A stretch of 64,000 nucleotides of DNA, taken from contig CAVSWC010000013.1 in the NCBI GenBank assembly GCA_963731585.1, positions 188,003 through 252,002 of the forward strand, in the 5' to 3' direction. The translations under genes were made by a program, and so were the position numbers. Below the pieces are notes generated by a model, which was not told the origin of the DNA, made no database searches, and saw only the letters and a list, made by a program, of their open reading frames with translations. This document shows positions 10,362 to 64,000 of the stretch, in pieces (the stretch's first letter is position 1; every line of letters starts with the position of its first letter). This DNA is from an uncultured Alphaproteobacteria bacterium (GTDB lineage: Bacteria; Pseudomonadota; Alphaproteobacteria; Rhizobiales; Xanthobacteraceae).

Positions 10362-10976
10362 TTATGCGACCTGCTCCAGCAGCTTTGCGCAAAGCCGCAG
10401 GTCGTTGACGAAACGGCCGTATTCCGCGGCCTTGTCGTTGTCGTCCTGGATCCGCAGCAGGTAGGATGGATGGATGGTCGCGATCAGCGGCGTGCCGTCG
10501 GCCAGCGGCACCACCCGGCCGCGCAGCTTGACGATCGCCGTCGGCCTGCCGGTCAGGCTGCGCAGGGCGGTGGCGCCCAGCGCCACCACCAGCTCCGGCT
10601 TGACGATGCGGAGTTCCTGCTCCTGCCACCAGTGGCAGCGATCGATCTCATAGGCATTCGGTTTCTTGTGCAGCCGCCGCTTGCCGCGCTGCTCGAATTT
10701 GAAATGCTTCACCGCGTTGGTGACGAAGATTTTGCGGCGGTCGAGTCCCGCTTCGGCGATGGCGCGGTCGAGCATGCGGCCGGCGGGGCCGACGAAGGGC
10801 CTGCCTTCCAGGTCTTCCTTATCGCCCGGCTGCTCGCCTACCATCATCACCCGCGCGCGCGGCGAGCCTTCTCCCGGCACGACCTGGGTCGCGTCCTTGT
10901 AGAGCGGGCAGCGCGTGCACTGCGCTTCCGCCTGTGCCAGGGCAGTCAGGGAACGGTAGGCAATCGGTTCGGCCAT
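10362..10976 (-). CDS. Family-4-type uracil-DNA glycosylase with UdgX signature
   Basis: CTRCPLY Fe-S cysteines are present. Motif A is GEQPG rather than GE[AG]PG. There is an inserted loop FEQRGKRRLHKKP (KRRxH), and motif B is HPSYLLR. An alternative TTG start lies at 11006. Confidence 0.8.
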   Translation of the reverse strand: MAEPIAYRSLTALAQAEAQCTRCPLYKDATQVVPGEGSPRARVMMVGEQPGDKEDLEGRPFVGPAGRMLDRAIAEAGLDRRKIFVTNAVKHFKFEQRGKRRLHKKPNAYEIDRCHWWQEQELRIVKPELVVALGATALRSLTGRPTAIVKLRGRVVPLADGTPLIATIHPSYLLRIQDDNDKAAEYGRFVNDLRLCAKLLEQVA

Positions 10977-23485: not shown

Positions 23486-23690
23486 GGCAACTTACTTTTC
23501 TGGCCCGGCGAATCATTTCGCTTTCTGTCACAGCTGGTGGTTCAGGCGTCAAGCGCTGTGGGCTTGAGTTGATCTACCGCGTCTTCGACGCAAGCGCGCG
23601 ATCAGCAAAAATGGGTACTGGTTTACGAAAAGCAATCAAGCTTGCGCAGATTGCGCAAACTTATCCGCGGTTCGCGCGCTAAAGCCCCCA

Positions 23691-23730
23691 CCTTACCCTC
23701 CCCCGCAAGCGGGGGAGGGTAAGGGAGGGG
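23691..23730. repeat. Family A-like palindromic hairpin (single module)
   Basis: CCTTACCCTCCCCCGC-AA-GCGGGGGAGGGTAAGG, followed by GAGGGG. Confidence 0.7.
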
Positions 23731-33057: not shown

Positions 33058-33097
33058 ACGGAATAATGGGCAGCCGAAGGAAGGGGATAACGACGTG

Positions 33098-33212
33098 TCC
33101 TGTCCCTTCGCCGGCATGACCCGGATCAGGTTCGAAGGGTCACCGCGCTGCCTGTTGCGCCCGCAATGGGCCAGGCCGTCGGTATCTCAGCCTCCTGCGA
33201 GGCACCCCTGGG
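33098..33212 (-). promoter_or_regulatory. TPP (THI-box) riboswitch
   Basis: The minus strand reads CAGGGGTGCC...GGCTGAGATACCG...ACCCTTCGAACCTGATCCGGGTCATGCCGGCGAAGGGACAGG. This matches the conserved GGGGTGC / CTGAGA / ACCTGATCNGG-NTNATGCC-GCG-AGGGA cores, upstream of thiC. Confidence 0.88.
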
Positions 33213-33431
33213 AACGGGGCTAATGTAGTCCCGTGGCGGGGGGTGTCAACGCAAGTTCTCCGTGCACGGCTCGGTTTCGTCGGCGGGCTTGCGTATCCCG
33301 GGCGCGGCGCAGCATGTCAATGCTGCGACGCAGACCCGGGACCGTTCCAATCCGTGGTGGTCCCGGATCAGCGGTGCACCGTTACACGCTGCACCGCATC
33401 CGGGACACGCGTGCCGCGCATCGCTGCGACG

Positions 33432-49798: not shown

Positions 49799-50118
49799 AA
49801 AAAGCCAGGCGGCTACGTCAGGATCAAACAGATGCCGAGCGAAAGCTTTGGTTTCAACTGCGCGATCGGCGTCTTGCGGACCTGAAGTTTAGACGGCAGA
49901 TGCCGCTCGGAGGCTTCATCGTCGATTTCTGCTGCGAGGAAGCGCATCTCATCGTTGAAGTCGATGGCGGGCAACACAACGAAAACGAACGAGACGTGGC
50001 GCGGACCAGGGGGCTGGAAGCGATGGGATATCTGGTGCTGCGCTTCTGAAATCATGACGTGTTGCAAAACATCGACGGTGTTCTCGAAACGATAGTCGGT
50101 ACGACAAAACAACAAAGC
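49783..50118 (+). pseudogene. DUF559 (Vsr-like) endonuclease-domain protein with an in-frame TGA at the conserved Trp position
   Basis: MASVVKKARRLRQDQTDAERKLWFQLRDRRLADLKFRRQMPLGGFIVDFCCEEAHLIVEVDGGQHNENERD...[26 protein letters not shown]. The family consensus at that point is RFWNN-VL. Confidence 0.75.
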
Positions 50119-50122
50119 GCGG

Positions 50123-50244
50123 AACCCCCTCACCCCATCCCTCTCCCCACAGGGGAGAGGGAGAACAGCGCCGCAGCGCCAACCGATACTTCCCTCTCCC
50201 ATAGGAAGAGCGTGCCTGAGCGAAGCTCTGGCGGGTGAGGGGTT
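50123..50244. repeat. Family A modules (one inverted, one direct)
   Basis: AACCCCCTCACC-CCAT-CCCTCTCCCC-ACA-GGGGAGAGGG, then CCCTCTCCC-ATA-GGAAGAGCG TGCCTGAGCGAAGCTCTGGCG GGTGAGGGGTT. Confidence 0.85.
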
Positions 50245-50254
50245 ATTGAGTGAG

Positions 50255-53200
50255 ATGTCAGTGACAAGAATCGCCAAAAATTCCCCCGTCGCATCCGCCA
50301 TCCGCCGCGCGGCGGCCGAGCGCATCCTGGTGCTCGACGGCGCCATGGGCACCATGATCCAGGCGCTGCGGCTCGACGAGGCCGGTTATCGCGGCGCGCG
50401 CTTTGCGGATTGGACGCGCGACGTGCGCGGCAACAACGACCTGTTGATCCTCAGCCAGCCGACCGCGATCCGCGACATCCATCTCGCTTACTTCCTGGCC
50501 GGCGCCGACATCGTCGAAACCAACACCTTTTCCTCCACCAGCATCGCCCAGGCCGATTACGGCATGCAGGCGCTGGCCTATGAGCTGAACGTCGAAGGCG
50601 CGAAGCTGGCCAAGGATGCCGCGCGCCTGGCCGAGGATAAGGACGGCAAGCCGCGCTTCGTCGCCGGCGCGCTCGGTCCGACCAACCGCACCGCATCGAT
50701 CTCGCCCGACGTCGGCAACCCCGGCTTTCGCGCCACCACCTTCGACGATCTGCGCGCGGCTTATGGCGAGCAGGTGAGGGGATTGCTCGACGGCGGCGTC
50801 GACATCCTGCTGATCGAAACCATTTTCGACACGCTCAACGCCAAGGCGGCGATCTATGCCATCGCCGAGATCACCGAAGAGCGCGGCATCGACGTGCCGC
50901 TGATGATTTCCGGCACCATCACCGATCTTTCCGGCCGCCTGCTGTCGGGCCAGACGCCGGAAGCCTTCTGGAATTCCGTGCGCCATGCCGCGCCGCTGTC
51001 GATCGGGCTCAATTGCGCGCTCGGCGCCAAGGAGATGCGCGCGCATATCGACGAGCTCGGCCGCGTGGCCGATACGCTGGTCTGCGCCTATCCGAACGCC
51101 GGACTGCCGAACGAATTCGGCCAATATGACGAGACGCCGGAACACACGGCGCGGCTGATGGGCGAATTCGCCTCATCCGGCCTGGTCAATATCGTGGGTG
51201 GCTGCTGCGGCACGACGCCGGCGCATATCCGTGCGCTGGCCGAGGCGGTCGCCGGCAAGGCGCCCCGCCCAATTCCGGAAATCCCGCGCATGCTGCGGCT
51301 GTCCGGCCTCGAGCCCTTCACGCTCACGCCGGAAATCCCTTTCGTCAACGTGGGCGAGCGCACCAACGTCACCGGCTCCGCGCGTTTCCGCAAGCTGATC
51401 ACCGATGGCGATTTCCCCGCCGCGCTCGATGTGGCGCGCGAGCAGGTGGACAATGGCGCGCAGATCATCGACGTCAACATGGACGAAGGCCTGCTGGATT
51501 CGCAGGAGGCGATGGTCAACTTTCTGCATCTCGTCGCCTCCGAGCCGGACATCACCAAGGTGCCGGTGATGGTGGACTCTTCGAAGTTCCCCATCATCGA
51601 GGCCGGGTTGAAATGCATCCAGGGCAAGCCGGTGGTGAATTCAATCTCGCTGAAGGAAGGCGAGGCGGCTTTCATCGATCACGCCAAGATCGTGCGCCGG
51701 CATGGCGCCGCGGTGGTGGTGATGGCCTTCGACGAGCAGGGCCAGGCCGATACGCTGGCGCGCCGCACCGGCATCTGCCAGCGCGCCTACGACATCCTGG
51801 TCAATCAAGTCGGCTTCCCGCCGGAAGACATCATCTTCGATCCCAACATCTTCCCGGTCGCCACCGGCCTGGAAGAGCACAACAATTACGGCATCGATTA
51901 TATCGAGGCGACGCGCTGGATCCGAAAGAACCTGCCGCACGCGCATGTCTCCGGCGGCGTGTCGAACCTTTCCTTCTCGTTCCGCGGCAACGAGCCGGTG
52001 CGCGAGGCGATGCATTCGGTCTTCCTCTATCACGCCATCAAGGCCGGGATGGACATGGGCATCGTCAATGCCGGGCAGATGATCGTCTATGACGACATCG
52101 AGCCGGAATTGCGCGAAGCGGTGGAAGACGTGGTGCTCAATCGCCGCGCCGACGCATCCGAGCGGCTGCTGGCGCTGGCCGAGCGCTACCGCGGCCAGAC
52201 CCGCGAGCAGAAGGAAGCCGATCTCGCCTGGCGCGGCTGGCCGGTGGAGCAGCGGCTGTCGCATGCGCTGGTGCACGGCATCACCGAATTCATCGAAACC
52301 GACACCGAGGAGGCGCGCAAGAAAGCCGAGCGCCCGCTGCACGTGATCGAAGGCCCGCTGATGGACGGCATGAACGTCGTCGGCGACCTGTTCGGCTCCG
52401 GCAAGATGTTCCTGCCGCAGGTGGTGAAGTCGGCGCGCGTGATGAAGCAGGCGGTGGCTTACCTGCTTCCCTTCATGGAGGAGGAGAAGCGGCTCAGCGG
52501 CGCCACGCAGTCAAATTCCGCCGGCAAGATCGTGATGGCCACGGTGAAGGGCGACGTGCACGATATCGGCAAGAACATCGTCGGCGTCGTGCTCCAGTGC
52601 AACAATTACGAGGTGGTCGATCTCGGGGTGATGGTGCCGGCGGCGAAGATCCTGGAAACCGCGATCGCGGAGAAGGCCGATCTGATCGGCCTTTCCGGCC
52701 TGATCACCCCCTCGCTCGACGAGATGGTGCATGTCGCTTCCGAAATGGAGCGGCAAGGCTTTGAGCTGCCGCTGCTGATTGGCGGCGCCACCACCAGCCG
52801 CGTGCATACCGCGGTGAAGATCCATCCGCACTACAAGCGCGGGCAGACGGTCTATGTGAACGATGCCAGCCGCGCGGTCGGCGTGGCGCAGGCGCTGCTC
52901 TCGCGCGAGGCGAAGAACGATTACATCACCGATATCCGCGCCGAATACGCCAAGATCGCCGCCGCGCATGCGCGCGCGCAGGCCGACAAGCAGCGGCTGT
53001 CGCTTGCCGCCGCGCGCGCCAATGCGCTCAAGCTCGACTGGCAGGCGCATAAGCCAGTGAAGCCGAGCTTCATCGGCACAAAGGTGCTGGAAGATTATCC
53101 GCTGGAAGAACTGGTTCCCTATATCGACTGGACGCCGTTCTTCCAGACCTGGGAGCTGTCCGGAAAATTTCCCGCCATCCTGGAAGATCCGAAATTCGGC

Positions 53201-53993
53201 CCGGCCGCACGGCCGCTCTACGAAGACGCGCGCAAGATGCTGGACCAGATCATCGCGGAGAAATGGTTCCGCGCCGGCGGCGTGATCGGCTTCTGGCCGG
53301 CCAACGCCGAGGGCGAAGATATTTTGCTCTATGGCGATGAGGCGCGCAAAACACCGATCGCCACGCTGCATACCCTGCGCCAGCAACTCAGCAAGCGCGA
53401 AGGCCGCTACAACGAAGCGCTGTCGGATTTCATCGCGCCGCGCGTCTCGGGCGTGCCGGATTATGTCGGCGCCTTCGCGGTCACCGCCGGCGTCGGCGAA
53501 GACGAAATCGCCGACCGCTTCAAGCTGAAGAACGACGACTATTCCGCCATCCTGGTGAAGGCGCTGGCCGACCGGCTGGCGGAGGCCTTCGCCGAGCGGC
53601 TGCATCAGCGCGTGCGCACGGAATTCTGGGGCTATGCGCCGGACGAGATCCTTGAGCACGCAAGAGCTGATCGAGGAAAAGTATCAGGGCATCCGCCCGG
53701 CGCCCGGCTATCCGGCGCAGCCCGAGCACACCGAGAAAGCGACCATCTTCAAGCTGCTGCCGGCGGACAAGGTCGGCTTGCAGCTGACGGAAAGCTTCGC
53801 GATGTGGCCGGGCGCCGCGGTGAGCGGGCTCTATTTCAGCCATCCGCAGAGCCATTATTTCGGCGTCGGCAAGATCGAGCGCGATCAGGTCGAGGACTAC
53901 GCCCGCCGCAAGGGCTGGAGCCTGCAGGAAGCCGAGCGCTGGCTGGCGCCGATCCTCAACTACGATCCGAAGCCGGTCGAGGCGGTGGCGTAG
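50255..53993 (+). pseudogene. metH: Cobalamin-dependent methionine synthase (one frame shift as sequenced)
   Basis: [13 protein letters not shown] (Hcy domain), [26 protein letters not shown] (pterin-binding), the B12 motif [15 protein letters not shown], and the AdoMet-activation domain. After a shift near 53650 it continues [29 protein letters not shown]...[21 protein letters not shown]. Confidence 0.92.
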
Positions 53994-54040
53994 ATTTCTC
54001 CCGCCGGTATCCACTCGTTATGTCCCAGCACAACTTCTCG

Positions 54041-54203
54041 CCTCATGGTGAGGAGGCGCGCGCGTAGGCGCGGGCCGTCTCGAACCATGCAGGCCCGAGA
54101 CCGCGGCCCATCCTTCGAGACGGCGCTTCGCGCCTCCTCTGGATGAGGTGGAATGTGTTGCGCTGTCACGGTGTCAACAGCCAACGGTGTTAAACAGCCA
54201 AGT
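54041..54203. repeat. Family B composite repeat, second near-colinear copy
   Basis: See 28617-28760; same order of blocks and same orientation. Confidence 0.85.
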
Positions 54204-54555: not shown

Positions 54556-54946
54556 CTCGCTCACTGGCGCGCAAGCGGCGCGGATTTTCGCTGCGAACGC
54601 GCGCGCCAGATCTCGTGTCAAAAGCAAACACCGGAGAGCGATGCTCTCCGGCGTCGATTTGATCGATTGTGTAACGGATGACGGCCGTTGCCGTTCGCCT
54701 TAATTTCAGAACGCTCCGAGAATGATTGCACCGAGGAAAAGAAATACGGCGCAAATCGCAAGCGTATCAAGTCTTAAGGTGACGCCCACCTGCGTGCCTC
54801 CCGCTGTGACGACCCGGCAAGCTTATCCATAATGTCGGCCGGGCCAAGCGGCGCCGGCGCCGCAGGGGGATAATTCCGCGTGAGGGTGTCACCGGCCCTT
54901 TGATTTTACTCGGAAATGTGCGTTACAATCTTTTGTTATCCCGACG

Positions 54947-56213
54947 TCATCGTCGCTTGGCGATGACGTTTTCCACAAAGGCCGCCGCTTCCAGCGTGGC
55001 ACGGTCGCGGCCGAAGCGCCCGACGATCTGCACGCCGAGGGGTAATCCGGCGCCGTCGGTGATGCCCGGCACGTTGACGCAAGGCGTCCCCATCGAGGTC
55101 CATAGCCGGTTGAAGATCGCCTTGCCGGTGGTGTTGAATCCGAGCGGCGCTGCGCCCGGCGCCGACGGCGTCAAGATGAACTTTCCTTCCAACAGCTCGT
55201 TCACCGCATGCCGCGCGCGCCGCGTCAGCCGCCGCGCCGAGTCATATTCCTCCGAGGTGATGCTCGCGGCCTTGTCCAACAGCAGGCCCAGCACCGGCCC
55301 GATCGCATTGCGGTGATTGTCATATTCATAGGCCAGCGCGCGGAAGGCCTCGTAATCCATGATGATCGGCTGCAGGCGCCAGGCTTCCTCCACCACATCA
55401 GGCAGGTCGATATCTTCCACCCTCGCGCCGGCGGCCCGCGCGGCGCGCGCGGTATCTTCGATCGCGCGCTGCATGTCGGCGCTCGCTTCATGCCAGACGC
55501 CGGTGCGCGCGACGAGCAGCGCCGGGCGGTTCAGGCGGCGTGCGGTCGACGCGCAGGTCGCGCCCGCTGATGGCGGCGGCGGCATAGGCTACATCCACCA
55601 CCCGCGCGGCGAACAGGCCGACGGTATCGAGCGACCAGGAAAAGCATTTGATGCCGACGGTCGGCAGCAGGCGATAGGACGGCTTGAATCCTGCGATGCC
55701 GCAGAACGCGGCGGGACGGATCACCGAGCCGCCGGTCTGGGTGCCGGTGGCAATCGGCACCATGCCGGCGGCGACCGCCGCGGCGGAGCCGGACGATGAG
55801 CCGCCGGGCGAATGCGCGAGGTTGCGGGGATTTTTGGTCTTCGCCGGCTGCATATGCGCGAATTCGGTGGTGACAGTCTTGCCCAGCACCACTCCGCCGG
55901 CGCGCTTGAGCATCGACACCGCGGAGCAATCAGCGGACGGCCGGTGGCCGGCATAAATTTTTGAGCCGTATTCGGTGGGAAAATCGACTGTGTCGAAAAT
56001 ATCCTTCACCCCGACCGGCAAGCCGCGCAGCAGCGCCGGCCCGTGTGCTTGTGCTTGCGCTTCTGCTCCTCCGCGCGCGCTCGATGTCGAGCACAGTGAA
56101 GGCGCCGATCTCGGCGTCCTGCGCGGCGATGGCTTCGGCGCACATATCAACGACCTTAGCCGACGTCAGGGTGCCGTCCTCGATCCGCCGCTCAAGATCC
56201 AGTACCGAAGCAT
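54947..56213 (-). pseudogene. Amidase-signature family protein (about three frame shifts as sequenced)
   Basis: GLPVGVKDIFDTVDFPTEYGSKIY, then GKTVTTEFAHMQP...AHSPGGSSSGSAAAVAAGMVPIATGTQTGGSVIRPAAFCG (AS signature), with C-terminal CVNVPGITDGAGLPLGVQIVG. The pieces lie in different frames (near 56208, 56065 and 55545). Confidence 0.8.
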
Positions 56214-56345
56214 TGTTGTCGTTCTCCTGCCCGCGACTTGACCCGAAACGAGACGGCCGTTCAAGCAACGATTTTTTATCCTTAAATACGGAGTTCGATT
56301 TCAGCGTTGATAAGTCGTTAATTCAAAGCCTCGCATTCTCGCGAG

Positions 56346-57790
56346 ATGAGACGGGGGCTCTGTTTTTCTCTTATCGGTGTGGCTGTTTCTCGGCGCGCTC
56401 GCGGGCTGCGGCCGCGGCTTCCTGACATTTGAGGAGCGCGAAGCCTGGCGGCACGAAGCGGAAGTCCAATGCCTGAAGTCCGGTGCGGTGAAGGAAGGGC
56501 CGGCGCTGGTGCGGATCAGCCCGATCGAAGGTCCGGGCATTTGCGGCGCGGATTTTCCGTTGAAGGTCGCCGCTCTGGGGGAGAGCTCCGGCCCTGGCCT
56601 TCGCCGACGACTTGCGTCCGCCCGGAGCGATTCCGACAGGGGGAGCAGCACAGCCGCGCTGGCCGGCATCGCAGCCGCAACCCGCCGAAATCTACGCCCC
56701 GGCGCCGGTCTACAACCGGCCAGCACCGCCACCTCATGCCGCGGCACGCGGCAACCCGCCTTATGCACCGCGTGCCTCCGATGCTTATGTTCCGCCGCCC
56801 GGCTCCAGTAACCACCTTCGCGAACCGGCGCCGCGGCAGGCCGCCCCGAATTACCCGCCGAATTACGCGCCGAATGTCGCCCCGGGCGAGCCGATATCGC
56901 TGCGAGCTCCCGGCATTGCCGACCTGATCGAGGCCGACGCCATGCGCAGCTATCCACCGGATCGTCCCGGCGGCAGCGTCGTGCGCTCTTACCCGCCCGA
57001 CCGGTCGGCTTATCCTGCGCCGACGTCGTATCCGGCGGATCGGCCGTCCTACCGCGCGCCGTCCTATCCGCTTGACCGCCCTGCTGCTTCCGCGCCGCAA
57101 ACCCTGCCGGCGCTCGGCCCCGTCCGCGGCCCACAAGTCACCGGCTCAGTCGGTCCGGTGGAAATAACGCCGAATGCCACGCTCGCCTGTCCGATCGTCT
57201 CCGCGCTCGATCAATGGATCGCGCAATCGGTGCAGCCCGCGGCGATGCGCTGGTTCGGCCAGCCGGTCGCCGAGATCAAGCAGATCTCCGCTTATTCCTG
57301 CCGCGGCATGAACGGCCAGGCCGGCGCGCGAATTTCCGAACACGCCTTCGGCAATGCGCTCGACATCTCTGCCTTCACGCTGGCCGACGGGCGCAAGGTG
57401 GTGGTGCGCACGGCCTGGAACGGCGCGCCGGAAGAGCAGGGATTTCTGCGCGACATCCAGGGCGCCGCCTGCCAGCAATTCACCACCGTGCTGGCGCCGG
57501 GTTCCAACCGCTTCCATTACGATCACATCCATGTCGATCTGATGCGGCGCCCCGGCGGCCGCCAGATCTGCAATCCCGCCGCGATGTCCGGCGAAGTCGC
57601 CGCCGCCCGCGCCGCGCAGCAAAAGGGCTATGCGCGCCGTACCGATCCTGCCGCGATCACCGGCTCGATTGATCGCAAAGGCAAAATGGCCGATATGCCC
57701 TCTGAGGACGACGACCATCGATGGGTCGATCCCGAGGCGCCGACGAGGCAGGCGGAGAGTCGCTCGCGCGAGCGCTTTCGCGACCCGTGA
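56346..57790 (+). pseudogene. Extensin-like_C domain lipoprotein with Pro-rich repeats (one or two frame shifts as sequenced)
   Basis: Lipobox VWLFLGALAGC. Pro-rich region with SYPPDRP-like repeats. C-terminal LACPIVSALDQWI...ISEHAFGNALDISAFTLADGRKV...FHYDHIHVDL. Shifts occur near 56360 and 56600. Confidence 0.75.
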
Positions 57791-57997
57791 TCGAATTCTT
57801 TTCTCCGCTCGAAGTGCGACTTATCCGACGTTGATCGCTTAACCCATCTCGGTAACGCGAGGTCGGCAGAGGGCGGGGAAGAGGGAGACGAGAGACGTAG
57901 CGCACTGGTTAACTCTTGGTGACCGCACCCTCCGAAAGATGCAATTTGTACATCAGGATTAATCCGAAAGTACCGGTTGGCGTTTAGAACTTCGCCT

Positions 57998-58989
57998 ATG
58001 CGCGTCGTATTGGTTGATCCGAGCCGGACCGTTCTGAAATTTGTCTCGCGTCTTCTGGAAGCGCGCGGCGATGAGGTGCGTCCTTTCACCGATGGGCGCG
58101 CCGCGCTGGCTTATGTCGCGGAGGATCCGCTGGTCGAATGCGCTGATCACCAGCGCCGAGCCGATGTCGATCTCCGGCCTTGAATTGTGCTGGGAAACGC
58201 GGCTGCTCGCGGGCGACCGGCGCTCCATCTACGTCATTCTGATGTCGTCCAACCAGGAGCGGCGCAATCTGGTTGAAGCGCTCGATTCCGGCGCCGACGA
58301 TTTTATCGGCAAGCCGCCCGCCGCAGAGGAGCTCTATGCCCGCCTGCGCGCTGCCGAGCGGCTCGCAACCATGCACCGCGACCTGGTACAGTTCGCTTCG
58401 CTCGATCCGCTCACCGGCATCTTTAATCGCCGGGTTTTCTTCGAACGGGCGCAAGCGGCGCTGGCGCAACGTTCGAAAAACGACAAGTTGGCCGCAATCA
58501 TGCTCGACATCGATCATTTCAAGCGCATCAACGACGCCTACGGCCATTCTATTGGCGACCGGGCGATCCGTGAAATCGCCAGCCTGATTTCGAATACTGG
58601 CGAGATCGTCGGACGGCTGGGCGGCGAGGAATTCGCCATGATCCTGCCGGGCCGCGACCTGACCGGCGGCAAGCACATCGCCGAGCGCCTGCGTCAGGAA
58701 ATCATGACCCTGCGCCTGCCGGCAGATGACAGGGTCGTGCCGCTTACCTCCAGCTTCGGCGTCAGCGAATGGGTTGTCGGGCGAGAGCATCGATGAAACG
58801 CTGCGCCGCGCCGACATGGCGCTTTATTCCGCCAAATCGGCGGGGCGCAACCGGGTGGTTACCACCGACGATGCCCTGGAGCTGAACGATTACAACGGCG
58901 TGGGCCGCCCGGTGCGCGCAGCACCACGGACCGAAGCGCCGCCGGCCCAAGCCAACGCCACGACAAGCAGCCCGCGCTCCGCGGCCTGA
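57998..58989 (+). pseudogene. Response-regulator receiver plus GGDEF diguanylate cyclase (two frame shifts as sequenced)
   Basis: MRVVLVDPSRTVLKFVSRLLE...GADDFIGKP (REC), DPLTGIFNRRVF, and RLGGEEFAMIL (GGEEF active site). Shifts occur near 58135 and 58775. Confidence 0.85.
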
Positions 58990-59102
58990 GGGCGCAGCGC
59001 CGCGCTGTCATCGGCCGCAACTGAGGCCTTATCACCGCGCCCGCCACACCCTATATTAGCTGCCAAGGCGGCCGGTTCGTGCCGCCTGCTGGGAGGATCG
59101 CA

Positions 59103-60083
59103 ATGGCCCGCTTTCGTTTCCGTCATATTTTTGCGCTGCTCGCCGCCGTGGCGGTGATGAGCTTCATCATCGGCGAAGCCGACGCCCGCGTTGGCCGCGG
59201 CGGCAGCCTCGGCAGCCGTGGCGCACGCACTTATTCGGCGCCGCCTCCGAGCGCGACCGCGCCTTCCACCGCCGCGCCGATGCAACGCACGATTACGCAG
59301 CCGAATGCGACCCGGCCCACGACGCCCGCGACATCTCCGTCGCCCGGCCTTGCCGGCCGACCCGGGGGATTGTTCGGCGGCGGATTGCTCGGCGGTTTGG
59401 CCGCCGGCTTCATCGGCGCCGGCCTGTTCGGCCTGCTCTTCGGCCACGGCTTTCTGGGTGGCCTCGGCGGCTTTGCTTCCTTCCTCGGCCTGCTCCTGCA
59501 AATCGGGTTGGTGATCATCGTCGCCCGCCTGGCCTGGGCCTGGTGGCAGCGCCGCCAGCAGCAGCCGGCTTTGGCTTCCGGTCCGTCCATGCGAGACAAC
59601 GCGACCGGCCAGGGCGGCGGGTTGGGCGGCTTCCTCGGCATGGGTGCGGGTGCCGGCGCTGCGGCGGCAGAAACCGGCGCGCCGCTGGAAATCGAGCCGA
59701 AGGATTTCGACGCCTTCGAGCAACTGCTTGAAGAAGTCCAGCAGGGCTACAGCGACGAGGATCTGAACGCGCTGCGTTCGCACGTCACGCCGGAGATGCT
59801 GTCGTATTTCGCCGACGATCTGGCGGACAACGCCAGCCGCGGCGTGCACAACAAGGTCTCGGACGTGAAGCTGCTGCAGGGCGACCTGGCGGAAGCCTGG
59901 CGCGAAGGCGATACCGACTATGCGACCGTCGCCATGCGCTTCGGCCTGACCGACCAGACCCTCGACCGCACCACCGGACGCCTGGTGGAAGGCTCAACCA
60001 GCCCGATGGAAGCCACCGAGCTGTGGACCTTCCGCCGCATACGGGCCGGTTCCTGGGTGCTCGCCGCTATCCAGCAGACCTGA
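59103..60083 (+). CDS. Tim44-like domain membrane protein
   Basis: Signal/TM, a Gly-rich TM region, and a C-terminal FEQLLEEVQQGYSDEDLNALRSHVTPEMLSYF...ATELWTFRR typical of bacterial Tim44-like proteins. Confidence 0.75.
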   Translation: MARFRFRHIFALLAAVAVMSFIIGEADARVGRGGSLGSRGARTYSAPPPSATAPSTAAPMQRTITQPNATRPTTPATSPSPGLAGRPGGLFGGGLLGGLAAGFIGAGLFGLLFGHGFLGGLGGFASFLGLLLQIGLVIIVARLAWAWWQRRQQQPALASGPSMRDNATGQGGGLGGFLGMGAGAGAAAAETGAPLEIEPKDFDAFEQLLEEVQQGYSDEDLNALRSHVTPEMLSYFADDLADNASRGVHNKVSDVKLLQGDLAEAWREGDTDYATVAMRFGLTDQTLDRTTGRLVEGSTSPMEATELWTFRRIRAGSWVLAAIQQT

Positions 60084-60108
60084 TCGCGACCATATCGATA
60101 AAGAAAAA

Positions 60109-60135
60109 GGCCGGGCCAACAGCCCGGCCTTTTTT
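60109..60135 (+). terminator. Rho-independent terminator, probably bidirectional (between convergent genes)
   Basis: AAAAA GGCCGGGC-CAACA-GCCCGGCC TTTTTT. Confidence 0.75.
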
Positions 60136-61395
60136 CTTCCCCTATCCCGAGAGCAGGGAGAGATTGGCCGCAGTGCCCTCGAATCTCTAGCCGTCGCGTC
60201 CGTCAGGCTTGCCATAGCCGCCCGCCGTCGGCGTCTTGATCGTCACGGCTTCGCCCGCATCCAGCAAGGTGGAGTCGCAGCCCTTCAGTTTTTCGATCCG
60301 GCCGTTGTTCCGCCGAACGCTGTTTTCTCCGACCTGACCCGCTTCGCCACCCGCCAGACCGAACGGGCGCACGCGGCGGTGCCCGGACAAGATCGTGCAT
60401 TGCATCTTTTCCAGAAATCGGATGCTGCGTGAGACGCCGTCGCCCGCCTTCCATTTGCCCCGTCCGCCGGAATTTTTCCGGATATGGAAATCCTCCAGCA
60501 GCACGGGATAACGCAGCTCCAAAACTTCGGGATCGGTGAGGCGGGTATTGGTCATATGCGTCTGCACCGCGTCGGTGCCGGGAAAGCCGGGACCGGCAGG
60601 TGAGCCGGAGCAGATCGTCTCGTAATATTGATAACGCGCATTGCCGAAATTGAGGTTGTTCATGCGTGCCTTGCGCCGCCGCCATCGCACCGAGCGCGCC
60701 AAACAGGCAATTGGTCACCGCCTGCGAGGTTTCCACGTTGCCGGCTACCACGGCGGCGGGATATTCCGGCGACAGCATCGAGCATTTTGGGATGACGATG
60801 CGGATCGGCCGCAGGCAGCCGGCATTCATCGGGATGTCGTCGTCCACCATCACGCGGAACACATAAAGCACCGCCGCACGCGTCACCGGCTCCGGCGCAT
60901 TGAAGTTGTCGCCCTGTTGCGGCGAGGTGCCGGTGAAATCCACCGTCGCCTCGCGTTTTTTCCGGTCGACGCTGATCTTCACCTGGATTCGCGTGCCCTG
61001 ATCCATCTCGTAGGTGAATGCGCCGTCGTGCAACTTGTCGATCACGCGGCGCACGCTCTCGGCCGCGTTGTCCTGCACGTGGCCCATGTAAGCCTGCACG
61101 GTGGCAAGCCCGAACTGCGCCACCATCTTGCGCAGTTCCTGCGCGCCCTTTTCGTTGGCGGCGATCTGCGCCTTCAGGTCGGCGACATTCTGCGCCGGGT
61201 TGCGCGCAGGATAGCTCGCCCCGTTCAGCAGCGCCCGCAACTCCTGCTCGCGGAAGCTGCCGCGATCCACCAGCTTGAAATTGTCGATATAGACGCCTTC
61301 CTCGCCGATGGTGACGGCATCGGGCGACATCGAGCCCGGCGCGATGCCGCCGATGTCGGCATGGTGGCCGCGCGAGGCGACCCAGAAGAGAATCT

Positions 61396-61544
61396 GCCCT
61401 CCACCCGCGGAGCGAAGCGAAGTGGCGGGGAGGGGTTGGGGGTGGGGGGCGCTTTTCTTGGAAGTCCCCCCACCCCGGCGCGCCGCTGCCGCGCCGCGCC
61501 GACCCTCCCCGCCACTCGCAAGGGCTCGTGGGAGGAGGGTGGAG
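61396..61544. repeat. Family A two-module palindromic element inside the oxoprolinase gene (in frame, no stop)
   Basis: CCCTCCACCCGC...GCGGGGAGGGGTT GGGGGTGGGGGG, a 16-nt spacer, CCCCCCACCCC ... CCCTCCCCGCC...GGGAGGAGGG. It is translated as STLLPRALASGGEGRRGAAAARRGGGTSKKSAPHPQPLPATSLRSAGGG. Confidence 0.85.
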
Positions 61545-63208
61545 AATACCGGCGTGCAGACGGTGATGTCCGGCAGATGGGTGCCGCCGTTATAGGGCGC
61601 GTTGGTCGCAAACACGTCACCCGGGCGGATCTTCGGATTCTGCCGGATGATGGTTTCCACCGCGCGGTCCATGGAGCCGAGATGCACCGGCATATGCGGC
61701 GCGTTGGCCACCAGCGTTCCGTCGGCGGAAAACACGGCGCAGGAGAAATCCAGCCGCTCCTTGATGTTGACCGAGTAAGCCGTGTTCTGCAGCGCAACGC
61801 CCATCTGTTCGGCGATCGCCATGAACAGGTTGTTGAACACTTCCAGCATCACCGGGTCGGCCTTCGTGCCGATCGCGCTCTGGCGCTTGAGTTTTTTGGC
61901 ACGGGTCAGCACGAGATGGTTTTTCACCGTCAGTTCCGCGCACCAGCCGGCTTCGACCACCACGGTCTGATGCGGCTCGATCATGATGGCGGGACCGGAG
62001 ATTTTCGCGCCGGGCTTGAGCTGATCGCGGGTGAAGATTTTGGCCGGGTGCAATTTGCCGCCGGAGAAAAACTTCGTGCGCCGCGTAGGGCGGGGGAGTT
62101 TTGCGCCGCTCTTGCGCCGCATCGGCTCGCGGAATTTGGCGCCGCCGCCGATCGCTTCCACCGACGACGGCTTCGATCACCAGCTTCTTGCTGCGGTCGA
62201 TGAAACCGAAGCGCGCTTTATGCGCCTTCTCAAAGGCAATCTGCATTTTTGCCGCGACGCCCGCAGGCACTTCCAGCGCGGTATCCGTTCCCGCGTAGCG
62301 GATATGCGCGCGCACCAGCAGCTTGATCTTGCCGCGCGCCACGCCCTGGCCGGCGACTTCCTTCGCAGCCTCCTTGCCAAGACGCGCCGCGGTCTTGTTC
62401 AGCGCCGCCATCGCCTGGGCATTCAGCGGCAGCTCGACCGCCTGCTGGCGCGTGGCGCGGATATCGGCCAGGCCCATGCCATAGGCGGAGAGCAGCGAGG
62501 AGAAAGGATGGATCAGCACCGTGGTCATGCCGAGTGCGTCGGCGACCAGGCAGGCATGCTGCCCGCCGGCACCGCCGAAGCAGTTGAGCGCGTAGCGCGT
62601 CACGTCATAGCCGCGCTGCACGGAAATTTTCTTGATGGCGTTGGCCATGTTCTCGACCGCGATGCGCAGGAATCCGTCGGCCACTTGCTCCGGCGTCCGG
62701 CCGACCTCGCGCGCCAGCGCCGCGAAAGCAACGCGCACCGCGTCGGCGTCGAGCGGTTGATTTTGTTGCGCGCCGAAAATCTTCGGGAAGAAATCCGGTA
62801 TCAGCTTGCCGACCATGACATTGGCGTCGGTGACCGTGAGCGGGCCGCCGCGGCGATAGCTCTTCGGCCCGGGATTGGCGCCCGCCGAGTCCGGCCCGAC
62901 GCGAAAGCGTGCGCCGTCGAAATGCAGGATCGAGCCGCCGCCCGCCGCCACGGTGTGGATCAGCATCATCGGCGCGCGCATGCGCACGCCCGCCACTTCG
63001 GTCTCGAAGCTGCGCTCGTATGCGCCGTCGAAATGCGACACGTCGGTCGAGGTGCCGCCCATGTCAAAACCAATCAGCTTTGTGAATCCGGCCTCGCGGC
63101 CGGTTTCCGCAAGCCCGACCACGCCGCCGGCGGGGCCGGAGAGGATCGCGTCCTTGCCCTGGAACAACTCCGCCGCGGTGAGCCCGCCCGCGGAGGTCAT
63201 GAACATGA

Positions 63209-63360
63209 GTTTCCCTCGCCCCGCTTGCGGGGAGCGGGTGGCCGAGCTTGCGGAGCGCGAGTCGGGTGAGGGGGCGTCTCCACGAGCTTGGCAGCGTCTG
63301 ACAGCTCGCCCCTCGACGCTCCGACCCTCTCCCCGTGAAGAACGGGGAGAGGGAGAAGAG
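63209..63360. repeat. Family A two-module palindromic element inside the oxoprolinase gene (HyuA part)
   Basis: CCCTCGCCCCGC-TT-GCGGGGAGCGGG, linker, GGGTGAGGGGG, a spacer of about 34 nt, CCCCTCGACGCTCCGA, then CCCTCTCCCC-GTGAAGAAC-GGGGAGAGGG. Confidence 0.85.
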
Positions 63361-64000
63361 GTCGCTCAGCTCATTCCGCCACCCTCTCCACATACCGCCG
63401 CAAAATCGGCGAGAGATAAGCGTCCACCACCGTGGTGTCGCCGCGGCCGATGAGCTTGATGAGAGGCGAGACTTTGTGGCTGACCGAGAGCTGCGGAAAG
63501 CCGATCTCGCGCGCCAGCGCCGCCACGCGCTGCTCGTGCGCGGGATGGCGATAGCCATGCATGAAGACGATGGCGACCGCTGCAATGCCGTCCGCCCGCG
63601 CGGCTTTGAGCGCTGGCCGCAACGCATCGAGATCCGGCGCACGCTCCACCGTGCCGTCCGCGCGCACGCGCTCGTCCACTTCGATCACGCGCTCGTAGAT
63701 CACTTCCGGCTTGAGGATGTGCTTGGCAAAAATCTTCGGCCGCGCCTGATAGCCGATCTTCAGCGCGTCGCCGAAGCCCTTGGTGATGAGCAGCAGTGTG
63801 CGCGCGCCCTTGCGCTCGAGCAGCGCATTGGTCGCCACCGTGGTGCCCATCTTAATGGCGCCGATCCGCTCGGCGGGGATCGGCTCGCCGCCTTGCAATC
63901 CGAGGATATCCCGAATGCCTTGCACCGCGGGGTCGCCATAGGCTTCGGGATTTTCCGACAAGCAGCTTGTGCGCGAGCGAGCGTGCCATCCGGCCGCCGC

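Follow-up and report, generated by a model that had tools for sequence, protein, structure and literature searches.

Genetic organization of the locus

The window, i.e. the whole 64-kb stretch of DNA that was analyzed, ends within a gene on the minus strand (60187–64000; its 5′ end lies beyond the window), which codes for an ATP-dependent lactamase of the 5-oxoprolinase type in which HyuA and HyuB are fused. The deduced protein contains the Pfam domains Hydantoinase_A and Hydantoinase_B; the name oxoprolinase, like the 5-oxoprolinase activity, is taken only from the source annotation of homologs. The match to Hydantoinase_B (PF02538, E=7e-139) falls into two stretches, which are separated, between profile positions 108 and 109, by an additional DNA segment. 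As described in an earlier note on this DNA, a minus-strand ORF (60203–62161) reads straight through this segment, which lies, with the frame kept, inside the HyuB-type domain.

The additional segment is 150 nt long (61394–61543, minus strand) and has a GC content of 76%. It is inserted, in frame and without stop codons, directly after the Phe codon that closes ...DITVCTPVF and directly before ILFWVASRGHH...; ...GGTHLPDITVCTPVF ends with its Phe codon at 61544, ILFWVASRGHHADIGG starts at 61393, and the insert translates to STLLPRALASGGEGRRGAAAARRGGGTSKKSAPHPQPLPATSLRSAGGGQ. The earlier note, which correctly quoted the junction peptide as ...HLPDITVCTPVF[STLLPRALASGGEGRRGAAAARRGGGTSKKSAPHPQPLPATSLRSAGGGQ]ILFWVASRGHHADIGG, had placed an element of about 147 bp at 61396–61544. 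The element is real and its position was correct to within 2 nt, but its measured extent differs as given above. Peptides that would span the insert junctions include TPVFSTLLPR and SAGGGQILFWVASR.

The insert is a nested palindromic repeat (MITE/REP-like) of a family termed here family X. In the sense of the gene, it consists of (i) a left terminal inverted arm of approximately 40 nt (CCACCCTCCTCCCACGAGCCCTTGCGAGTGGCGGGGAGGG; 61503–61542), (ii) a GC-rich internal hairpin A, which is variable in sequence among the family copies that were folded (61476–61502), (iii) an internal hairpin B composed of GGGTGGGGGG, a 16-nt loop and CCCCCCACCCC (61439–61475), and (iv) a right terminal inverted arm (CCCCTCCCCGCCACTTCGCTTCGCTCCGCGGGTGGAGGG; 61397–61435), complementary to the left one; all four lie on the minus strand. 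The palindromic nature of the segment was borne out by perfect arms of 14 nt (61421–61434 and 61503–61516) and 11 nt (61439–61449 and 61466–61476), with outer arms also present, and by a strong predicted RNA fold (−116.5 kcal/mol; z=−7.0 versus shuffled sequences). After correction for GC content, the element is the most structured 160-nt stretch of the window (z=−6.1). It contains no stop codon in any of the six frames, and its stop-free character, although correctly recorded in the earlier note, is therefore an effect of composition; only the length divisible by three, and hence the preserved frame, is informative.

In Rfam, no family matched the element, either above the gathering threshold or with E≤1. 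Elsewhere in the window, a TPP riboswitch was detected on the minus strand (33085–33219; RF00059, 62.2 bits, above the gathering score). The neighboring region 33359–33431 is 89% identical to positions 10956–11028 of L001, a relative syntenic with the window.

Comparison with empty sites and location of the insert in the enzyme

The gene order of L001 (oxoprolinase, Tim44, RR-GGDEF, extensin-like and amidase genes) is the same as in the window, and a blastn alignment of the two breaks exactly at 61544 and 61393. A search for relatives with an empty site, as suggested in the earlier note, was successful. In the nearest of them, L112, the same codons are separated by 12 nt encoding GGNK (TTC-GGCGGCAACAAA-ATC). 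A loop of 4–6 residues was found at this site in 86 of 116 homologous proteins, as well as in 77 of 80 genome loci, which agrees with the claim that HyuB/oxoprolinase proteins normally have a short loop here. Between 13 and 65 residues separate PVF from the RGHH motif in 30 of the 116 measurable homologs, a share that depends on the query (30/116 with an insert-bearing query, 3/80 with an insert-free one) and does not represent an unbiased estimate. The run of codons in the window is a true insertion relative to an empty allele.

The insert is bordered by two segments that correspond to β-strands: upstream HLPDITVCTPVF (61544–61579, minus strand; alignment to 6yra_B and AlphaFold2 strand) and downstream ILFWVASRGHH (61361–61393, minus strand; alignment to CapB and AlphaFold2 strand). 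In solved structures of the homologs CapB (6YRA chain B) and N-methylhydantoinase (7HK5/9H03), the two strands are joined by a turn of 2–4 residues. The metal ligands of the caprolactamase CapB are Asp41, His99, Asp102 and His124, and these are conserved in oxoprolinases (PMC8453981). The His codon at 61577–61579 and the Asp codon at 61568–61570 align with His99 and Asp102 (H and D of THLPD, 8–11 residues before the insert), while the His codon at 61364–61366 aligns with His124 (first His of RGHH, 10 residues beyond the insert). As judged from these alignments, the insert is situated at the far tip of a β-hairpin, with three of the four metal ligands at the hairpin base.

Mapping of the site onto a model, another of the checks suggested earlier, gave a consistent picture. 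An AlphaFold2 prediction of a 400-residue fragment encoded by the window, made with 53 homologs and of moderate quality (mean pLDDT 63.7), comprised a strand (residues 99–107), an unstructured insert (pLDDT 31–37) and a second strand (residues 157–167); its best structural matches were 9H03 and 6YRA chain B. The insert is thus predicted to add approximately 46 disordered residues at the tip of the hairpin. The insert peptide matched no Pfam family. Comparison of the host gene with its counterpart in L112 yielded a dN/dS of 0.15, which suggests that the gene is under purifying selection.

A dispersed family of palindromic repeats

Scanning of metagenomes with a 19-mer derived from the left arm of the window copy retrieved 28 stretches, approximately 22 of which share the full modular architecture, with copies of 130–190 nt. 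This architecture comprises a first arm (CTyCCCTCCC..GCGAGCGaaGCGAGTGGCGGGGAGGG), a short variable hairpin, GGGGTGGGGGG followed by a variable loop and CCCCCCACCCC, and the inverted first arm. The arms at both ends (approximately 38 nt) are mutually complementary, and the same arms are present in about 17 other copies. Despite its sequence changes, hairpin A forms a stem-loop in the majority of the 20 copies in which it is present; it is weak in L098, replaced by two small hairpins in L106 and L108, and missing in 2 additional copies.

A model based on 11 other copies, leaving out those of the window and L098, was used in an nhmmer search and matched the element over its whole length (61397–61540; E=1.3e-20), a score somewhat inflated by the retrieval of the copies with a window-derived 19-mer. 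The same model detected no second copy anywhere in the 64-kb window. The earlier note had ascribed to the element the architecture of the intergenic “family A” repeats of the window. This kinship had to be abandoned, as blastn-short and local alignments with the other palindromes of the window gave scores at random level; these palindromic elements belong to families other than family X.

Most family X copies are located outside genes or just 3′ of stop codons, and four of them lie on different contigs of a single metagenome-assembled genome (JAESGW01). On three metagenome contigs, a gene for an RluC-like pseudouridine synthase (KVQNVAVTTDEGGMRVDRFLEARFPGLSFSH...; L088, positions 407–425; L090, 5231–5249; L100, 3783–3801) has a copy at its N-terminal end, where the copy lies in an open frame. 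Another element is nested inside the family X copy of L088. A blastn comparison of the element with plasmids gave no match, possibly owing to the low-complexity filter, and a protein search with the 50-residue insert peptide gave nothing; since the word index returned one candidate, the latter search is uninformative.

The terminal inverted repeats, the small size, the dispersed copies (approximately 22 in metagenome contigs) and the absence of coding capacity suggest that, by its architecture, the element fits the definition of a MITE. The dispersed copies are what points to its mobility. No consistent direct repeats were found at the junctions of the window copy, of L098 or of the intergenic copies; ATTC occurs on both sides of the window element and is explicable by the codons. 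T-rich left flanks, considered as a possible target motif, are the counterpart of the right ends (...GAG/AAG) and more likely belong to the inverted arms. The terminal sequences of 17 copies, (C)T(y)CCCTCCC...GGGAGGG(r)AG, carry neither the GTAG nor the CGTC tag, so that the element does not appear to belong to the REP superfamilies defined by this tag.

Recurrent insertion sites in oxoprolinase-type genes

Examination of the extended loops, which are spread over at least 15 separate lineages, revealed 8 or more types of repeat-derived peptide, among them SPSPLVGEG...PSPQGGGE, RHPEERAKRASKGDGPG..FEARA..HLRMT, TTDDGRR..RPSSV and the type found in the window. In a tree of the host proteins calculated without the insert, sequences that carry an insert are intermingled with those that lack one. 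The small clade of the window, (P0007 one family, (window, (P0003 empty, P0002 another family))), contains three different inserts and one empty site. Family X itself is present at this loop in three distant clades with differing junctions, including the distant L098/P0005 lineage, and a half-element remnant was identified in P0009 and P0012. These occurrences represent independent, recent events followed by decay, and the loop is a recurrent, probably tolerated insertion site at which many related soil bacteria carry different repeats.

The presence of long segments at the same position in many relatives, three of them (P0005, P0009 and P0012) similar to that of the window, might be expected if the segment were an old, lineage-specific loop or domain of this enzyme clade rather than a mobile element, and the earlier note had named orthologous segments of similar length as an observation that would speak against an insertion. 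Such segments do exist; however, they belong to different families or represent independent insertions and are nested among empty-site relatives, and therefore support the insertion. An old loop is also extremely improbable because in the closest relatives the site is empty or occupied by an unrelated insert, the DNA family is found mostly outside genes and also in other genes such as the RluC-like one, and the segment is a near-perfect DNA palindrome whose peptide resembles no Pfam family.

Mapping of a Bosea reference protein onto the 80 genome loci revealed two more expansion sites besides the PVF/ILFW loop of the Hydantoinase_B domain (hot spot 3; 61394–61543 in the window): hot spot 1, in the HyuA part, at reference residues ~229–239 (before RLMFMxSxGGL), and hot spot 2, at residues ~553–564 (before AFExAHKARFGF). 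Hot spots 1 and 2 coincide with Pfam domain boundaries, i.e. with inter-domain linkers. Intact ORFs of 1318–1367 residues (stop to stop) with inserts at all three sites were identified. In the protein search, the best 120 hits were all of 700 residues or fewer, although their 90% clusters also contain full-length proteins (1318–1350 residues); these clusters are represented by fragments beginning after the second insertion site.

Other repeats of the window also have relatives at these sites. A small intergenic hairpin at 23685–23730 (CCCCCACCTTACCCTCCCCCGC/GCGGGGGAGGGTAAGGGAGGGG) belongs to the family that forms the in-frame inserts of L011 and L049 at the PVF/ILFW site. The repeat at 50120–50171 matches the insert of L001 at hot spot 3 and a second element in the oxoprolinase gene of the window, and that at 54028–54161 matches the inserts of L113 (hot spot 3) and L083 (hot spot 1). 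Relatives have members of the latter family, translated as RHPEERA..SKGDG..FEARA..HLRMT, at hot spots 1 and 3. In the window, both repeats are placed outside genes, the copy at 50120–50171 being partial and lying just upstream of a 1323-codon open frame (50096–54064).

The second palindromic element of the host gene (63209–63360, minus strand), of a type designated family B, is located in the HyuA part at hot spot 1 and is built of CCCTCTCCCC..GGGGAGAGGG modules. Family B is also present at hot spot 1 in L049 and L098.

These observations raise the possibility that the three sites are true target sites and that the insertion machinery prefers, for example, A-rich Lys-codon tracts, which are conspicuous in GC-rich coding DNA, or resident elements; the recurrence would then stem from targeting and not just from a selective filter on permissive loops. 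The target at the loop is only 12–18 nt long and has been hit in all the lineages counted above; two of the approximately six recognizable elements of the window are found in the oxoprolinase-type gene; empty sites consist of A-rich tracts of Lys codons (e.g. GACGACAAAAAGAAAAAG); the element at a given site may differ even between close relatives, and elements may be nested, as in L088. Against such targeting, the exact point of insertion in the loop varies by several nucleotides, neither a conserved target motif nor a target duplication was seen, and two linkers and a hairpin tip are what a pure selection filter would leave. A crude census of perfect GC-rich hairpins in the 80 loci, which is too unspecific a measure, revealed no strong enrichment at the hot spots. 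Remnants such as TSTLPTTSLRSVEGGGKK are also found at the site. On this evidence, preferential targeting may have occurred but is rather doubtful. The wider proposal, that there are three genuine hot spots at which at least 6 unrelated repeat families insert, replace one another and decay, with targeting or a trap effect of the coding context acting in addition to tolerance, is equally tentative.

Preservation of the reading frame

Of 11 free family X copies, 4 have a length that is a multiple of three. As 58% of the frames of the free copies contain no stop codon, a random insertion would keep the ORF with a probability of approximately 0.19 (58% open × one third). Among the expansions of at least 24 nt in the genome loci, those that kept the frame and contained no stop codon numbered 13 of 15 at hot spot 1, 22 of 23 at hot spot 2 and 8 of 8 at hot spot 3. 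Since the loci had been selected on their HyuB match alone, sites 1 and 2 constitute an unbiased sample. Pooled over the three sites, 43 of 46 expansions were in frame (compared to the ~19% expected by chance); the exceptions come only from the window and L083.

This bias suggests that the inserts are translated and that the enzyme remains functional, and it speaks against a bypass by the ribosome or a simple cleavage of the mRNA. The insert of the window would therefore be translated and tolerated, much as in Rickettsia palindromic elements. An intein or a bypassed intervening sequence was considered and rejected, given the absence of a Pfam hit for the insert and the retention of frame in the pooled expansions.

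The stability of the predicted hairpin and the covariation of hairpin A, whose structure persists while its sequence changes, could be reconciled with an element acting at the RNA level, either as an RNase III or pausing hairpin tuning expression or as a sequence bypassed by the ribosome. The frame retention described above would be unexpected if the insert were skipped or the mRNA cut. Moreover, the element has no Rfam match, and the needs of transposition explain conserved hairpins equally well. A role of this kind is therefore considered highly unlikely.

State of the host gene in the window

As sequenced, the host gene contains six +1 frame changes (near 63975, 63960, 63378, 63368, 62166 and 60665). 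The ORF 60203–62161 is in the true coding frame only from approximately 62165 to 60665, with single-base changes at 62166 and 60665. A TGA stop codon (63371–63373) is present just upstream of the second element, which adds 134 nt and in which the frame is broken as sequenced. Deletion in silico of single bases at ~63378 and ~63368 opens the reading ...VANELATSSPSPRSSRGEGR...SPQAGRGKLMFM, like that of intact relatives. The earlier note mentioned neither these disruptions of the gene (at least six) nor the second element in the HyuA part with its stop codon, nor the recurrence of insertions at the hot spots.

With six frame changes in 3.8 kb and a stop codon beside the second element, the gene might be a decaying pseudogene in this genome, in which an in-frame element of 150 nt would be coincidental and uninformative on tolerance; a random family copy keeps the ORF with a probability of ~0.19–0.33, and a single in-frame case carries little weight. 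However, the neighboring RR-GGDEF (twice), extensin-like and amidase genes are also shifted in comparison to L001. All ten shifts are +1, at approximately one per kb, and they affect every gene but one in the region 54900–64000, which fits a technical insertion bias; the two shifts visible at the base level are single extra bases that do not lie in homopolymers. The low dN/dS relative to the empty-site relative is also at variance with decay. Similar breaks are present in L083, although its near-identical cluster mate (90% or more identity) encodes an intact protein of 1342 residues (P0128). The uniform direction and density of the shifts, together with the dN/dS value, make it very probable that they result from assembly insertion errors, and the gene is unlikely to be a pseudogene.

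In L083 (8278–12076), a contig of long-read style, the oxoprolinase gene is annotated as three separate ORFs of 207, 367 and 691 residues, and the breaks coincide exactly with the repeat inserts. Repeats with runs of G or C seem to be places where long-read-style assemblies create false gene splits.

Discussion

The best explanation of the data, which we consider highly probable, is that a non-autonomous palindromic mobile repeat has entered an oxoprolinase-type gene in frame, and that it is translated, tolerated and nearly neutral there. This reading is built on the anatomy of the element, its membership in a dispersed family, the comparison with empty alleles, the recurrence of insertions and the frame bias; we infer from the sequence comparisons its translation, tolerance, neutrality and mode of transposition.

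The events may be envisaged as follows. A GC-rich palindromic repeat, moved by a transposase assumed to act in trans, would land in the gene within a hydrophilic, loop-coding stretch of 12–18 nt between two β-strands of the Hydantoinase_B domain. Copies with a frame-keeping length would survive, their composition making stop codons rare. The insert would then be translated as a Gly/Ala/Ser/Arg/Pro-rich disordered excursion of approximately 46 extra residues, directed away from the active site; the enzyme would tolerate this addition, and the element would have no function for it. Being nearly neutral at this position, and removable only by a precise in-frame deletion, the element could persist. 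Its later fate would be erosion by in-frame deletions or overwriting by new insertions. In this manner, the loop and the two inter-domain linkers may be places where members of several unrelated repeat families repeatedly land or are retained across Xanthobacteraceae-like soil bacteria.

The comparison with Rickettsia palindromic elements (RPEs) made in the earlier note was apt. RPE-1 and its relatives, reportedly described by Ogata et al. in 2000, form several families of 100–150 bp. Like family X, RPEs are palindromic and occur in intergenic DNA as well as, with the frame kept, in conserved protein genes, where they are translated and occupy permissive surface regions. A discussion of RPEs is also given in PMC3733652. 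The window element shows the same combination of a palindromic repeat that keeps the frame of a conserved gene and also occurs in intergenic DNA. In contrast to RPEs, its host is a GC-rich, free-living soil alphaproteobacterium and, given its GC content of 76%, homology in sequence to RPEs is very unlikely. Furthermore, the peptide in this case is Gly/Ala/Arg/Pro-rich and predicted to be disordered, and the same codon-scale site has been hit repeatedly by different families.

The “byp” elements of Magnusiomyces mitochondria, which are GC clusters skipped by the ribosome, need not keep the reading frame. They resemble family X in being GC-rich mobile palindromic clusters inside protein-coding genes, but the frame retention at the three hot spots argues for ordinary translation in the present case.

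MITEs such as Coxiella QMITE1/2 and the Neisseria Correia elements share with family X the lack of coding capacity, the terminal inverted repeats, a size of ~100–200 nt and a dispersed distribution. Family X differs from them in that its internal modules are themselves variable hairpins and in that the examined junctions show no consistent target-site duplication. MITEs, e.g. QMITE1/2, sometimes create in-frame fusions or protein extensions (PMC5896051).

The RAYT-mobilized GTAG/CGTC REPs are GC-rich sequences with a conserved tetranucleotide at one end of a 20–40-nt hairpin (Di Nocera et al. 2013, PMC3733652). They are mostly intergenic, with a minority in ORFs adding 10–80 residues; relatives of the present bacterium (Rhodopseudomonas, Bradyrhizobium) carry such families, and uvrA and polA have been hit more than once (PMC3733652). 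Unlike these intragenic REPs, the family X unit measures 130–190 nt and has long inverted arms, rather than being a 20–40-nt hairpin or a dimer of it. The supplementary files examined from that study (PMC3733652), among them its table of intragenic REPs, list no oxoprolinase, and text searches of the literature retrieved no report of such insertions in oxoprolinase genes.

By analogy, the insertion described here would be functionally the same phenomenon as RPEs, the intragenic REPs of Di Nocera et al. (PMC3733652) and in-frame MITEs (PMC5896051). The type of event is known; what is new is the pattern of three sites and multiple families, with hot spots beside a catalytic metal site. In-frame palindromic repeats are best known from Rickettsia, a bacterium with a small, decaying genome. 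The present data point to the same process in soil bacteria that are free-living and GC-rich; here it takes place close to a catalytic metal site and has recurred independently many times at the same few codons.

Such genes may represent a natural replicated experiment, both on the tolerance of a protein to 40–60 disordered residues and on the distinction between targeted and selection-filtered insertion. The finding also bears on genome annotation: elements with runs of G or C may generate false gene splits in error-prone long-read assemblies, and repeat-derived peptides inflate the “hypothetical” sequence space. Should the three sites prove to be genuine hot spots of the kind tentatively proposed above, palindromic repeats would be the main source of loop-length change in this oxoprolinase-type protein.
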